Shown here: in pieces, positions 7,727 to 12,048 of the stretch | Numbering within the stretch: position 1 is the first letter of the stretch | Layout: every line of letters begins with the position of its first letter | Source: an archaeon GW2011_AR15 | GTDB lineage: Archaea > Nanobdellota > Nanobdellia > Woesearchaeales > GW2011-AR15 | Assembly (NCBI GenBank): GCA_000830295.1 | Contig: CP010425.1 | Location: 928,001 to 992,000 of the forward strand | Direction: 5' to 3' | Length of the DNA: 64,000 nucleotides | Position numbers and translations under genes: made by a program | The notes under the pieces: model-generated | The model's database searches: none | Told to the model about the DNA's origin: nothing | What the model saw: only the letters and a program-made list of their open reading frames with translations

Positions 7727-8749
7727 ATGATTCCGGATTCAGAGATTAAAGAGCTGAGGGAAGCGCTTGTAAATTCTACCCGGCCGCTGGTTTTCTTTGA
7801 TGATGACCCTGACGGCCTGTGCTCTTTCCTCCAGTTCTACAAGCTGAACCCTGAATGCCACGGAGTTGTCTTCAAGAAGGCAGGCTCGCTTGATGCGGAA
7901 TTCCTGAGGAAAGTCGGGGAATATCACCCCGATGCAATATTCATACTTGATATTGCGAATGTTGACCAGGAGTTTCTGGATAAGGTGAAAAACGCATACT
8001 GGCTTGATCACCATTCACCTTCTGAAAGGAAGAATGTGAAATATTACAATCCTATGATAAAAAGTAAGGGAAAGGACAACAAGCCCATAAGCTACTGGGC
8101 GTATAAGATTACAGGGGAGAGCTCATGGCTGGCAATGACAGGCTGCGTGGGAGACTGGTTCCTTCCTCCGGATATAAGGAAAAAATTTGATGAGGAATAT
8201 CCCGGGCTTATTGACAAGAAGATAAAAAAGCCGGAAGATGCCCTGTTCAAAAGCAAAATAGGAACACTCTCAAGGGCGCTTTCATTCATCCTGAAAGGCA
8301 AGACAAAAGAGGTAATGGATTGCGTTAAAGTGCTTACGCGAATCCAGCACCCAAATGATATACTGGAGCAGAGCACTTCCAGAGGTAAGTTTATCTGGAA
8401 AAAATACCTGAAGACCAACAGCATATACAATTTACTGATAAAATCAGTCAAAGTTACTAAGGATAAGATAATCCTGTTTAAATATTCCAGTGATAAAACC
8501 TCATTAACGTCTGAGATGAGCAATGAGCTTCTTTTCAGATATCCGAAAAAGTTTATAATAATTGCAAGGGAAAAGAACGGAGAGATGAAATGCTCACTCA
8601 GGTCATCAAAATACAAGGTCCGCATTATCCTTAAGAAAGCTCTTCAGGGAATTGACGGGTATGGCGGCGGGCACCTGCATGCATGCGGAGCTGCGGTAAA
8701 GGCAACTGATTTTGACAGGTTTCTGGAGAATATAAGGCAGCAATTATAA
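7727..8749 (+). CDS. DHH/DHHA1 family phosphoesterase (RecJ/NrnA-like)
   Basis: DDDPDG, ILD, LDHH, GD, SLRS and GGGH..ACG motifs. Confidence 0.9.
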   Translation: MIPDSEIKELREALVNSTRPLVFFDDDPDGLCSFLQFYKLNPECHGVVFKKAGSLDAEFLRKVGEYHPDAIFILDIANVDQEFLDKVKNAYWLDHHSPSERKNVKYYNPMIKSKGKDNKPISYWAYKITGESSWLAMTGCVGDWFLPPDIRKKFDEEYPGLIDKKIKKPEDALFKSKIGTLSRALSFILKGKTKEVMDCVKVLTRIQHPNDILEQSTSRGKFIWKKYLKTNSIYNLLIKSVKVTKDKIILFKYSSDKTSLTSEMSNELLFRYPKKFIIIAREKNGEMKCSLRSSKYKVRIILKKALQGIDGYGGGHLHACGAAVKATDFDRFLENIRQQL

Positions 8750-8754
8750 TAAAT

Positions 8755-8762
8755 TTTATATA
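8755..8762 (+). promoter_or_regulatory. TATA box for the ileS leader transcript
   Basis: TTTATATA starts 30 nt before ATG 8785. The same spacing occurs for sufB (12083/12114), the 2031 gene (2000/2031) and aIF-1A (26191/26221). Confidence 0.6.
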
Positions 8763-8784
8763 TAGACCCGACCTACTTCTCCCC

Positions 8785-8826
8785 ATGTTTTCAGATAATA
8801 TCGTAGTTTCTATCATTATTATCTAG
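8785..8826 (+). CDS. Putative Ile-rich leader peptide of ileS (MFSDNIVVSIIII)
   Basis: ATG TTT TCA GAT AAT ATC GTA GTT TCT ATC ATT ATT ATC TAG. Four consecutive Ile codons; ends 84 nt upstream of ileS. Confidence 0.6.
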   Translation: MFSDNIVVSIIII

Positions 8827-8910
8827 TTGGGGCTCTGAAAGGGCTCTGGTAATTAATATGATAGAGAGCAAATTATTTAAAACAGAACAAAAATACAGAT
8901 AAGCACGAAG

Positions 8911-11900
8911 ATGGAAAAATACGACCCTGTAACTGAAGAGAAGAAAATTCTTGAATTCTGGGAAAAAGAAAAGATAAGGGAAAAAGCTGTTTCAAAGAAC
9001 AAAGGGAAGAAACCCTTCTATTTTCTTGACGGCCCGCCATATACCTCCGGCAAGATCCATCTTGGAACTGCATGGAACAAGTCTATCAAAGACATGGTCA
9101 CCAGATACAAAAGGATGAGGGGATTTGATGTCTGGGACAGGGCAGGCTATGATATGCACGGCCTTCCTACAGAGGGTAAAGTGCAGGCCAAGCTCGATAT
9201 GAAGACAAAGGAAGAGATCCTCAAATATGGACTTGCAAAGTTCATAAAAGACTGCAGAGAATGGGCTGTTACCAACCTGAAGCAGATGAACAAGGACTTC
9301 AAAAGGCTTGGGGTCTGGCTTGATTTTGACAATGCTTACCAGACAATAGACAATGACTATATTGAGGGAACATGGTGGCTTGTAAAAAAAGCCCATGAAA
9401 AAAACAGGCTGTATGAAGGCCAGATGACAATGACCTGGTGCGGCAGCTGCCAGACAGCCCTTGCAAAGCATGAGCTTGAATACAAGAATGTTGTTGACAA
9501 ATCCCTTTATGTGAAATTCAAGGTAAAGGGCAGAAAAGACGAGTATCTGATTATATGGACAACAACGCCCTGGACAATCCCCTACAACCTGGGAGTCATG
9601 GTCAATCCTGACCTCGTTTATGTAAAAGCAAAAGTGGGCAACGAGACATGGGTCCTTGCAAAAGAGCTTGTGAAAATCATTGAGGAAAAAGCAGGAAAAA
9701 AGTACAGGATAGCTGAGGAATTCAAGGGAAAGGAGCTTGTGGGCACGGAATACATACATCCGATGGAAGATGTCCTGAAGCACCATTTTGATGCATTGAG
9801 GAAGAAAGCAAAAAAGCTTCATGTTGTTGTGCCAAGCACTGAGTATGTCATAACAGATTACGGAACAGGTCTGGTGCACATGGCTCCCGGATGCGGAGGC
9901 GAGGACTATGAAGTCGGCCACAGGGAAGGCCTCCCTCCTTTCAACCAGGTCAATGAAGAAGGATATTATGATAATACAATGGGTCCGTTCTCAGGGTTGC
10001 ATGTAAAGAAAAATAACCTTGTTTTTGTAGAAGACTTAGAGAAAAGAGGCGCAGTTGCAGCCATGGAGGATTATCCACATGATTACGCCCACTGCTGGCG
10101 CTGTAAAAACCCGATATTATACAGGACAACAAGCCAGTGGTTCTTCAGGGTTGAGGACCTTATCCCAAAGATGAGGAAGCTGAATAAGGAGAAGATGTAT
10201 TGGGTGCCTGACTGGGCAGGAAACAGGCAGTTTGACTCATGGCTGGAGAATTTAAGGGATAACGGAATTACAAGGCAGAGATTCTGGGGCTCTCCTCTTC
10301 CTGTCTGGAAATGCGATTCATGTAGCCACTATGTTGTTGCTGAATCCAGGAAAGAGCTGAAAAAACTAGGAGCATCCCATATCCCGGATGACCTTCACAA
10401 GCCCTGGATCGATGAAGTAACACTGCCCTGCGGGAAGTGCAGGGGAACAATGCACAGAAATCCCGATATAATGGATGTCTGGATAGATGCAGGAGTTGAT
10501 TCATGGGCATCACTTGGATATCCGCATGATGACAAGCTATTCAAGAAATTATTCCCTGCTGATTTCATAACAGAAGGGAAAGACCAGATAAGGGGGTGGT
10601 TCAACCTGCTGTTTGTGGCAAGCATGCTGGCGATGGAAGATATATCCTTTAAGGCGTGCTACATGACCGGCTTTGTCAATGATGCAATGGGCAGGAAGAT
10701 GTCAAAGAGCCTTGGCAATGTCATAAGCCCTGATGAGATTACAGAAAAATACGGCGCAGACACTTTCAGGTATTATTCAATAGGCGCAACTGCCCCAGGC
10801 CTGGACCTTAACTATAATTTTGAGGATGTTGAGCTCAAGAGAAGAAACCTGAGCATTTTGTGGAACCTGCACAATTTTGTAATTGACCTGGCAAAAACAA
10901 ATGGCCTCAATCCTGAAAAACTAAAAAGCACAGTTCTGAAAAGCGCAGGTGATGAAGAGCGATATATTTTGTCAAAACTGAATTCAGCAATCGCGCTTGT
11001 GACAGAGAAGCTTGACAACTACAATCTGAATGAAATTCCAATGATTACAGAAGAGCTTTACATGGAGCTGTCAAGGACATACATCCAGCTTGTGAGGGAA
11101 AAGGCAAACGCAGGAACTGATGAGGAGAAGGAAGTAGTGCTTTATACAGTTTACAGTGTGATGAAAAGCCTGCTCATACTGATGGCGCCCGTAACCCCTA
11201 TGATTACTGAAATGATGTACCTCAATATGAAAAAAGAATTTGGCCTGAAAAAAGAGTCCATCCACCTTTATGACTGGCCTGAAGCAGACAGGAAGCTTAT
11301 AGACAAAACCCTTGAAAAAGATATGGAGAATATAAAAGGAGTCATACAGGCAGTGCTGGGTGCAAGAGAGAGAGCGCAAGTGGGCACAAGATGGCCATTG
11401 CAGGAAGTCATAATCGAGACCTCAGATTCAGATGTAAAAAAGGCGGTTGAGGACCTCAAAGGGCTTATATTCTATCAGGCTAATGTAAAATCAGTGAAGC
11501 TTGTCAAGAAATTCGACAAAGCTGACATAACCATAAAGCCTAATTTCAAGACACTCGGCCCAGAATTCGGGAAAGATTCAAAGGAGATAATCAAATACCT
11601 TTCAGAGACGGACAATTCAGCCCTTGTGAGCCAGCTCAAAGACGGCAGGCTGAAAGCAGGAAAGCATGTTCTTGAAGAAAAGCACCTTGTGCTTGAGAAA
11701 ACACTTCCAAAAGGGTATTTTACAGGAGAATTTCCTTTAGGCAATGTCTTCCTGACAGCAGATGTTCCTGACGAGCTTGTTTCAGAGGGGTATTTCAGGG
11801 AAGTGCTGAGAAGGATACAGTCTTTCAGGAAAGATGCAGGCCTGAAGAAAACAGATGACATTGAGCTCTACCTAAAGCTGGACAAAGAGATTTACAGCAG

Positions 11901-12048
11901 GATATTGCCGTTCAAAAAAGAAATCAAAGAGAGGGTCGGAGCAAAATCCCTGGAAATTTCGACTGAGCCTGCAAAAAAGAAATATAAGCACAGCAGCAAG
12001 GACACAATAAAAGGCCTGAATGTCGAAGCAGGGTTTGATGTTGTTTAG
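8911..12048 (+). CDS. ileS: Isoleucine--tRNA ligase (archaeal/eukaryal type)
   Basis: DGPPYTSG..HLGT (HIGH variant), WTTTPWT editing motif, GTGLVHMAP, EGKDQIRGWF, KMSKS. Confidence 0.97.
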   Translation: MEKYDPVTEEKKILEFWEKEKIREKAVSKNKGKKPFYFLDGPPYTSGKIHLGTAWNKSIKDMVTRYKRMRGFDVWDRAGYDMHGLPTEGKVQAKLDMKTKEEILKYGLAKFIKDCREWAVTNLKQMNKDFKRLGVWLDFDNAYQTIDNDYIEGTWWLVKKAHEKNRLYEGQMTMTWCGSCQTALAKHELEYKNVVDKSLYVKFKVKGRKDEYLIIWTTTPWTIPYNLGVMVNPDLVYVKAKVGNETWVLAKELVKIIEEKAGKKYRIAEEFKGKELVGTEYIHPMEDVLKHHFDALRKKAKKLHVVVPSTEYVITDYGTGLVHMAPGCGGEDYEVGHREGLPPFNQVNEEGYYDNTMGPFSGLHVKKNNLVFVEDLEKRGAVAAMEDYPHDYAHCWRCKNPILYRTTSQWFFRVEDLIPKMRKLNKEKMYWVPDWAGNRQFDSWLENLRDNGITRQRFWGSPLPVWKCDSCSHYVVAESRKELKKLGASHIPDDLHKPWIDEVTLPCGKCRGTMHRNPDIMDVWIDAGVDSWASLGYPHDDKLFKKLFPADFITEGKDQIRGWFNLLFVASMLAMEDISFKACYMTGFVNDAMGRKMSKSLGNVISPDEITEKYGADTFRYYSIGATAPGLDLNYNFEDVELKRRNLSILWNLHNFVIDLAKTNGLNPEKLKSTVLKSAGDEERYILSKLNSAIALVTEKLDNYNLNEIPMITEELYMELSRTYIQLVREKANAGTDEEKEVVLYTVYSVMKSLLILMAPVTPMITEMMYLNMKKEFGLKKESIHLYDWPEADRKLIDKTLEKDMENIKGVIQAVLGARERAQVGTRWPLQEVIIETSDSDVKKAVEDLKGLIFYQANVKSVKLVKKFDKADITIKPNFKTLGPEFGKDSKEIIKYLSETDNSALVSQLKDGRLKAGKHVLEEKHLVLEKTLPKGYFTGEFPLGNVFLTADVPDELVSEGYFREVLRRIQSFRKDAGLKKTDDIELYLKLDKEIYSRILPFKKEIKERVGAKSLEISTEPAKKKYKHSSKDTIKGLNVEAGFDVV

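Follow-up and report, generated by a model that had tools for sequence, protein, structure and literature searches.

Leader-peptide attenuation is a textbook bacterial mechanism that needs coupled transcription and translation, and its examples include trpL, pheL, ilvL and thrL as well as pheM, which lies before the synthetase genes pheST of E. coli. Synthetase genes in Firmicutes are usually controlled by T-box riboswitches, with ileS as a classical target, and tnaC of E. coli senses free tryptophan via its nascent peptide and acts by Rho-dependent attenuation. Archaea have the termination factor FttA/aCPSF1. Here we analyse a short open reading frame (ORF) that ends in a run of isoleucine codons and lies upstream of ileS, the gene for isoleucine--tRNA ligase (IleRS), in the DPANN archaeon GW2011_AR15. 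The locus is part of a stretch of 64,000 nucleotides (assembly GCA_000830295.1, contig CP010425.1, positions 928,001 to 992,000 of the forward strand), which is called the window throughout and in which positions are counted from the first letter. We propose that the 5′ leader of ileS mRNA probably contains, in this element, an isoleucine sensor that acts in cis and depends on translation.

Two further systems bear on this proposal. In mycobacteria, as reported by Canestrari et al. (10.1101/834739), polycysteine leaderless short ORFs form a 'Cys ribulon' in which ribosome pausing makes several loci responsive to a single amino acid. Archaeal intrinsic termination, as described in another study (PMC7289017), relies on poly-U and is independent of hairpins. 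In the available part of a 2010 survey of bacterial attenuation, archaea occur only in the reference list (PMC2965389). A search of the full-text literature, subscription journals and supplements excepted, returned bacterial systems only and no archaeal leader-peptide attenuator. To our knowledge, there is no established case of such attenuation in archaea, and, judged by its sequence, the ileS leader appears to be the first equivalent in archaea of the leader-peptide attenuators known from bacteria.

An isoleucine-run leader upstream of ileS

All features of the module lie on the forward strand. The leader promoter carries a TATA box, TTTTATATATA (8754–8764), in which TTTATATA begins at 8755, 30 nt upstream of the leader ATG at 8785. 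The predicted leaderless ORF, MFSDNIVVSIIII, comprises 13 codons and a TAG stop (8785–8826, with the stop at 8824–8826), and it closes with the putative sensor codons (8809–8823), a Ser codon TCT (8809–8811) followed by four Ile codons, ATC ATT ATT ATC (8812–8823). The stop is separated by 84 nt from the ATG of ileS (8911–12048), the putative regulated gene, which encodes 1045 amino acids and matches TIGR00392 at 812 bits against a cut-off of 621. An initial annotation, made from the window alone, had placed the TATA box, the ATG, the ORF, the helix arms, the hairpin, the repeats, the 84-nt spacing and ileS, and all of these coordinates are correct.

The genome is a single 1.158-Mb contig with an archaeal small-subunit ribosomal RNA (1426 bits with the archaeal model) and a GC content of 42.5%, and is therefore not very AT-rich. 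Using simple ORF calls made for this analysis, we found that TATA-like motifs peak sharply at −30 from the start codons (98 at −30, 47 at −31 and 30 at −32, among 1172 genes); thus leaderless mRNAs are probably the norm in this organism. The leader ATG stands at exactly this distance, in agreement with the leaderless spacing first attributed to it. Separately, long 5′ leaders stand before only a few genes of this genome, with ileS, valS and thrS among them. The initial annotation had cautioned that Ile codons are common in AT-rich DNA. ATG-started short ORFs (4–35 amino acids) with three consecutive Ile occur in four of 824 upstream regions of the genome, and it is the conservation of the leader that sets it above chance.

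Conservation was assessed in the IleRS loci of 41 related genomes, 28 of which offered at least 200 nt of upstream sequence, with a fixed rule that called an ATG-started ORF of at most 30 amino acids if three or more of its last seven residues were Ile. An ORF of this kind was present in 13 of the 28 regions. The set was then widened by 80 loci from public genomes, with duplicate genomes removed, and here 23 loci satisfied the rule. L074, L083 and L116 (L numbers denote loci) were rejected as leaders, as these three have no hairpin or arm; L083 and L116 also have no TATA box, and L116 is bacterial. Among 31 bacterial ileS loci one was flagged, without TATA box or hairpin, and the other 30 were not. 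Altogether 26 homologous leaders were found upstream of ileS in Woesearchaeota/Nanoarchaeota relatives, and a leader is present in 12 of the 18 assessable genomes of the family; the genomes are related and the counts not independent, so they overstate the independence of the observations.

The leaders share a plan of TATA box, about 30 nt, ATG, a variable N-terminal part, Ser, the Ile run, the stop, a GC hairpin that begins 3–8 nt past the stop, and finally an RRUAGAGA-type 3′ arm. They are 11–24 amino acids long and have two to seven Ile codons at the end, with no codon between run and stop in 18 leaders and one in eight. In their last eight positions the Ile codons are ATT 79 times, ATC 44 times and ATA five times, and the stops are TAG in 11, TAA in 10 and TGA in five. 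A Ser-Ile-Ile core is kept and no peptide feature is conserved beyond Ser and the Ile run; length and N-terminal sequence vary and the frame is intact in every ileS leader. The expectation from the window that relatives would keep a short Ile-run ORF with synonymous codon variation and a covarying helix is therefore borne out. A variant group (L093, L094 and L097, one of them from Pacearchaeota) has the leader and a GCGAGA...UCUCGC hairpin, with no clear 3′ arm.

Of 20 ileS leaders, 16 have a TATA box between −28 and −32 relative to their in-frame ATG, and so do all six further hits of the covariance model described below, which were not used in building the model; the model covers neither ATG nor TATA box. 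This register in 22 of 26 leaders, the intact frames and the synonymous use of Ile codons all point to a leader that is putatively translated. In the core loci no strict TATA box precedes the main ileS ATG, and in four loci (L103, L070, L028 and L020) the leader stop is only 50–59 nt from ileS, both of which argue in favour of one transcript. The DHH gene upstream and the SufBD gene downstream of the window locus are kept in none of the other 19 leader loci, within the flanks examined; since the neighbours differ between loci, the element appears to travel with ileS. Judged by these comparisons, the Ile-run leader upstream of ileS is not a chance product of composition.

Helices P1 and P2 in the leader RNA

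As comparison of the relatives shows, the Ile codons form one arm of a predicted 10-bp helix, P1, the other arm of which lies 35 nt past the stop, with a GC hairpin, P2, enclosed between them. In the window, folds and the model alignment place the 5′ arm of P1, TTTCTATCAT, at 8807–8816 and the 3′ arm, ATGATAGAGA, at 8858–8867; within these arms TCTATCAT (8809–8816) is complementary to ATGATAGA (8858–8865). P2, GGGGCTCT-GAA-AGGGCTCT (8829–8847), begins 3 nt past the leader stop. In DNA it is a direct repeat that can become a hairpin in RNA via G.U pairs, and this richness in G.U means that it could form only in sense-strand RNA.

A covariance model, R1, was built from 13 leaders with 10 pairs for P1 and six for P2, and on the ileS loci it matched 15 distinct leaders as well as a reverse-strand echo of one. 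In the model alignment 90% of the P1 cells are paired over the 10 pairs, compared with 44–56% when the partner columns are slid, numbers that lean towards structure, as the alignment was fitted to the model structure and the sequences are related. The cells comprise 127 Watson-Crick pairs, 17 U.G, no A.C or C.A and 16 others. Each C of the 5′ arm faces a G, and where ATC has changed to the synonymous ATT the new base faces A or G. Three pairs have changes on both sides, and in L006 and L068 an extra ATT in the 5′ arm is matched by an extra AAT in the 3′ arm. A decaying DNA palindrome would be expected to show A.C as often as U.G; thus, the counts of 17 and 0 argue that P1 has been selected as sense-strand RNA.

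The same counts bear on an alternative that we regard as highly implausible, in which the inverted repeat TCTATCAT...ATGATAGA is a DNA operator that binds a transcription factor beside the promoter and the short ORF is incidental. The 3′ arm does directly precede a purine-rich stretch and a TATA-like tract, as might suit an operator, but the repeat mismatches fall on the U.G side of the sense strand 17 times to none, the inner hairpin keeps its pairing and not its sequence, and an operator would leave the ATG register, the frame and the cognate rule at five other synthetase genes, described below, unexplained.

For P2 the alignment is poorer, with only 59% of its columns paired, and P2 is therefore described from per-sequence folds. 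These place a stable P2 at the same position with unrelated stems, such as GAGACC/GGUCUC, CCCCAU/AUGGGG and CCAGCUUC/GAAGUUGG. Mean fold z scores are −1.2 for P1 and −1.5 for P2, which is modest against shuffles that, here and for the 5′-end pairing below, preserve mononucleotide content only. RNAalifold on MAFFT alignments returned only six pairs for ileS and none for valS, because the hairpins are not aligned by sequence. A single-sequence fold of the window leader has a minimum free energy of −28.2 kcal/mol (z = −1.84, with seven of 200 shuffles equally stable), and this fold alone is weak evidence; the above-chance case rests on conservation. An Rfam cmscan of positions 8000–9600 up to E = 10 gave no family, only seven unrelated matches at chance level, all far below gathering scores.

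When 151 genomes sampled evenly across the order were scanned with R1, eight genomes from seven families gave one hit each, and all eight hits lie upstream of ileS on the same strand, two of them before an IleRS only 37–40% identical to that of the window and two others about 300–350 nt from ileS. A scan of 151 genomes from the phylum gave hits in four of the five family members and in this genome, and in none of the 146 others.

Two further pairings were considered. The initial annotation had proposed that GCTCT (8832–8836 or 8843–8847) competes for AGAGC (8865–8869), a fold for which the relatives' sequences hold no counterpart. Pairing of the mRNA 5′ end with the tract past the 3′ arm was dropped as a general feature, as it was significant in only four of 14 loci (mean z −0.66).

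Cognate-run leaders at other synthetase and amino-acid genes

Within this genome 884 short ORFs were found in the 824 upstream regions, and 55 have a run of at least three identical residues. Of the 55 short ORFs that follow a TATA box in register, just three carry the same residue four or more times within their last eight positions, and these are the Ile run before ileS, a Tyr run, MHKPAAQSKYSYYYYC, before a Biopterin_H gene, and a Phe run, MAYTESVSGFFFFN, before an operon with a Pterin_4a gene. The next candidate is a Val run, MYSIWKTLSVVVAN, before valS.

Across the related genomes, the run matches the cognate synthetase, so that a cross table of residue against gene is diagonal. Ile runs precede ileS in 13 of 28 loci, valS in one of 29 and leuS in none of 20; Val runs precede valS in 10 of 29 and neither ileS (0/28) nor leuS (0/20); and Leu runs precede leuS in 15 of 20, ileS in two of 28 and valS in three of 29. 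All other residues score two or less. The idea that further synthetase genes might carry runs of their own cognate codons is confirmed in the lineage for valS, leuS, thrS, serS and metS.

This diagonal also bears on the reading of the leader as a chance low-complexity run or a free-standing gene for a hydrophobic micropeptide, whose probability we consider next to negligible. Ile makes up 8% of the residues in the genome and the run of L069 is an (ATT)7 repeat, so growth by slippage is possible. A chance run or an independent gene would however not be expected to follow the cognate rule, to have R1 hits only before ileS and to keep its place among differing neighbours, and a micropeptide would be one in which only Ser and the Ile run are conserved over lengths of 11–24 amino acids.

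The valS leader of this genome, MYSIWKTLSVVVAN, is leaderless by its promoter (TATA at −31), lies at G000:C1:672608-672652 (L031/L037; G000 is this genome) and ends 94 nt before valS. Codons 4–6 form a predicted helix with sequence past the stop that encloses the Val codons, and a second helix of GGCUUUUUCUUCU with AGAAGAGAAAGC is followed by UUUUUAU. A structure for valS drawn by hand on the alignment suffered register shifts, hence no pair count was taken from it. Leu-run leaders precede leuS in 15 of 20 loci by the common rule and in 16 of 21 by inspection. As further observations on leuS, the leaders (L164–L183) are leaderless, e.g. MKSGLLLL, MERLLLL and MKHELLLLL; genome G009 carries leuS twice, and a separate Leu leader stands before each copy; and a strict TATA box lies between leader and leuS in nine of the 16 leader loci. 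Thr-run leaders of the type ...EEFILLILN..TTTTTTC precede thrS in five of five congeners (thrS loci L193 and L195–L199), Ser runs precede two of nine serS-sized genes (MRSTSSSIS and MKFKTSISS, at L185 and L191), and a Met-rich leader, MNMTNHFNMSMMMR, precedes one of five metS genes (L246). In five congeners no cognate leader was found before 15 Asp/Asn/Lys, five Arg and 11 Trp/Tyr synthetase loci.

By single-sequence folds and inspection, the Val, Leu and Thr leaders differ in build from that of Ile. Sequence near the beginning of the ORF, in leuS with the AUG as part of it, serves as the 5′ arm and pairs with UUCAKUGGC past the stop; the cognate run and stop are held in the loop, and a U-rich tract follows. 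The motif UUCAKUGGC is shared by the valS, leuS, thrS and serS leaders, 0–15 nt past the stop and followed by the U-rich tract; the Ile leaders have only UGGCY, at the start of P2, in common with them. Motif and tract together may be a common output module.

The two aromatic runs of this genome stand before genes of other kinds. The Tyr-run leader, leaderless and at G000:C1:241553-241603 (L033), precedes a Biopterin_H gene for a Phe-4-hydroxylase-like protein, which was not found in 40 other genomes searched. A 63%-identical homologue is encoded on two nearly identical metagenome contigs (L157, positions 530–620, and L158), where a YYYY-containing short ORF, a GC hairpin and a U tract stand before it. 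The Phe-run leader, also leaderless (G000:C1:165204-165248, L032), lies 122 nt before an operon for proteins of 192 and 154 amino acids without Pfam match and a pterin-4a-carbinolamine dehydratase; the 192-amino-acid protein was likewise not found in the 40 other genomes searched. Two other kinds of short ORF were seen in passing. In L235 (G004) and L239 (G003), a conserved TATA-preceded ORF, MVRIGTLIFGERI and MIRVGTKIFGERK respectively, has no homopolymer run and lies upstream of an unusually long gene (~593 amino acids) for a tRNA-synt_1b class Ib synthetase-like protein. In this genome, a 35-codon Met/Thr-rich ORF (MTIMMMTTMMIMITTMMNGRF..., G000:C1 ~782,500-782,610, minus strand, L034) lies 178–286 nt upstream of a gene for a 157-amino-acid membrane-like protein.

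The structure of these leaders is also relevant to the possibility that IleRS regulates itself. E. coli ThrRS binds its own operator, and the U-GAU-A of the P1 3′ arm resembles the anticodon loop of tRNA-Ile(GAU), so that it might bind IleRS. In favour of this, the 3′ arm carries UGAUA or UGGUA almost without exception, and both arms are more conserved in sequence than pairing alone requires. The valS, leuS and thrS leaders, however, carry cognate codons and no anticodon mimics, with the run in a loop or without a complementary arm, and the element common to the leaders is the translated run; autoregulation would also leave the TATA-to-ATG register and the intact frames unexplained. We consider it very improbable.

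Taken together, the leaders suggest a DPANN 'ribulon', a reading we favour over its denial with some reserve, in which leaderless cognate-run leaders control the Ile, Val, Leu, Thr and sometimes Ser and Met synthetase genes and, here, aromatic genes. By ribosome occlusion, a helix from inside the ORF across the stop would form only when no ribosome stands on the run, and this helix would shut the transcript down. The aromatic targets would then be acquired genes, the Phe-4-hydroxylase gene under a Tyr run and the pterin-dehydratase operon under a Phe run.

Candidate mechanism and comparison with known systems

The mechanism that we propose for ileS has a sensor and an output. Judging from the promoter geometry, transcription would start about 30 nt past the TATA box, so that the mRNA begins at the AUG of the 13-codon ORF. 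With charged tRNA-Ile plentiful, the first ribosome would reach the stop and leave, and P1 and P2 would fold. With charged tRNA-Ile scarce, it would stall on the Ile run and cover the 5′ arm, and P1 would be kept open. This sensor, in which ribosome stalling on cognate codons would prevent the helix, is well supported by the comparative evidence. For the output we tentatively prefer, at somewhat less than even confidence, conditional premature termination or release: folded P1 and P2 would end or inactivate the leader transcript before ileS, by premature termination or by factor-dependent release in the A/U-rich tract, and stalling would let RNA polymerase read on and so raise IleRS. The layout of the valS, leuS and thrS leaders, with a helix from the ORF to just past the stop and then a U-rich tract, fits a terminator-like helix that a ribosome would block.

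The A/U-rich tract 3′ of P1 (8870–8885) includes a TATA-like TTTAAAA (8876–8882) and is a candidate second promoter, termination or pause zone, or spacer. The TTTAAAA begins 35 nt upstream of the ileS ATG and misses the sharp peak of TATA motifs that the genome shows at −30. A tract like it, of the type AAAUAUAUAAA, follows the 3′ arm in most relatives, including two with ileS about 300 nt downstream, with no strict TATA match; its candidate roles are those of a weak second promoter, a zone of pausing or termination, or a place where a termination factor lands. No binding site for FttA/aCPSF1 is recognisable from the sequence.

Several points weigh against this proposal, in addition to the relatedness of the genomes, the fitting of P1 to its own model, the poor alignment of P2 and the modest fold scores given above. 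Most ileS loci have no U tract after P1, as the initial annotation had noted for this locus in finding no poly-U terminator, and with archaeal termination driven by poly-U this argues against a classical terminator at ileS. Mutually exclusive terminator and antiterminator helices were not found, only P1 and P2 being conserved and constrained folds giving no common alternative. Across 20 loci, the ileS start region was predicted to be just as likely unpaired with the Ile run masked as without masking. The TATA-like tract directly 3′ of P1 may serve as a second promoter, in which case ileS would depend on the leader only in part, and that starvation raises expression is an assumption taken over from the bacterial systems. 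For the wider set, a Leu leader is absent in this genome (L163), whose leuS has a TATA-like motif in the leaderless register; its thrS leader, MIANNLLDYLHLILMPRTATY, is a weak version with only two Thr codons; and the valS locus of G009 (L061) keeps the motif GTTAGTAGTGGTG and the downstream helices and has an in-frame TAG before the Val run, which makes it either an assembly error or a decayed leader.

One possibility is that the same sensor acts on translation, with the state of P1 controlling initiation at ileS either by a 3′ arm that masks the ribosome-binding site (RBS) or via a short frame that starts at an AUG or GUG in the 3′ arm. We regard this as unlikely. In L028 the Ile codons pair best with the Shine-Dalgarno (SD) and AUG region of ileS, in L103 and L070 the 3′ arm ends 16–18 nt before the ileS ATG, and the mycobacterial polycysteine system acts in this way (10.1101/834739). 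An AUG or GUG lies within the 3′ arm in 13 of 16 alignment rows (columns 141–143), as the complement of CAT in the Ile codons, and in the window it opens a speculative second short ORF of 14 codons (8858–8902, TAA at 8900–8902) that stops 8 nt upstream of the ileS ATG. Against a translational output stand the unchanged accessibility of the ileS start on masking and the distance of the 3′ arm from the ATG, 35–54 nt in core loci, with overlap of the arm and the SD/AUG region in L028 only. The second frame is conserved neither in length nor in the distance of its end from ileS, ranging from three to about 20 codons in relatives by inspection, and as a general mechanism it was dropped.

A second possibility, which we hold to be quite improbable, is that the output is mRNA stability, where either a ribosome halted some 30 nt into the leaderless message or the P1 and P2 structure would protect it from 5′-to-3′ decay. 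Promoter geometry puts the leader at the very start of the mRNA, and several loci have a 5′ AUG that pairs with nearby sequence or with the tract past the 3′ arm, significantly in the four of 14 loci mentioned above. This 5′-end pairing is however not general, and protection from decay gives no reason for the strict conservation of P1. Conditional termination or release remains our preferred output, with the confidence stated.

If the proposal is correct, it would be the first ribosome-mediated attenuation in Archaea, and the first ribosome on a leaderless mRNA would communicate with the transcription or RNA-processing machinery in these symbionts. Archaea would have evolved the same logic as bacteria on another chassis of leaderless mRNAs, TATA promoters and hairpin-independent termination, and the leaders would offer a compact, sequence-defined system in which to test the influence of the archaeal ribosome on transcript fate. 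They would also show which amino acids (branched-chain, Thr, Ser, Met and aromatic) are monitored by uncultivated, biosynthetically poor symbionts, and could serve as portable amino-acid sensors for archaeal genetics. The cognate-run rule also lends itself to simple screening of archaeal genomes at large.

Among the known systems, the ileS leader would resemble a T-box in coupling synthetase expression to the charging of the cognate tRNA. It differs in that a T-box has no ORF and reads uncharged tRNA directly, and positions 8000–9600 gave no Rfam T-box match. With tnaC it would share ribosome arrest at the end of a leader ORF, an unstructured spacer to the gene and factor-dependent termination as a possible output, but the ileS leader would sense codon supply and not a free amino acid. 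The likeness to the bacterial attenuators extends to a short ORF in the 5′ leader, a cognate-codon run near the C-terminus of the peptide, a synthetase gene as a possible target, and sensor codons that take part in RNA pairing, so that a stalled ribosome would change the fold. Unlike them, the ileS leader is archaeal and leaderless, without a Shine-Dalgarno sequence and with its AUG at the predicted 5′ end of the RNA; it has neither a terminator of hairpin and U tract nor a recognisable antiterminator, and its switch helix spans from inside the ORF across the stop codon.

The mycobacterial polycysteine ORFs share with the ileS leader a leaderless first-cistron ORF (here from promoter geometry), a homopolymeric cognate run and a duplex that a stalled ribosome would block. 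They differ in the sequestration of the RBS, which was not seen in the ileS predictions (20 loci), and in that each archaeal leader would sense a different amino acid, with the matching synthetase genes as targets. The sensor features of both families are thus present and the output features, which were looked for, are not, and we therefore class the ileS leader as an element that would work like these systems rather than as a member of either.

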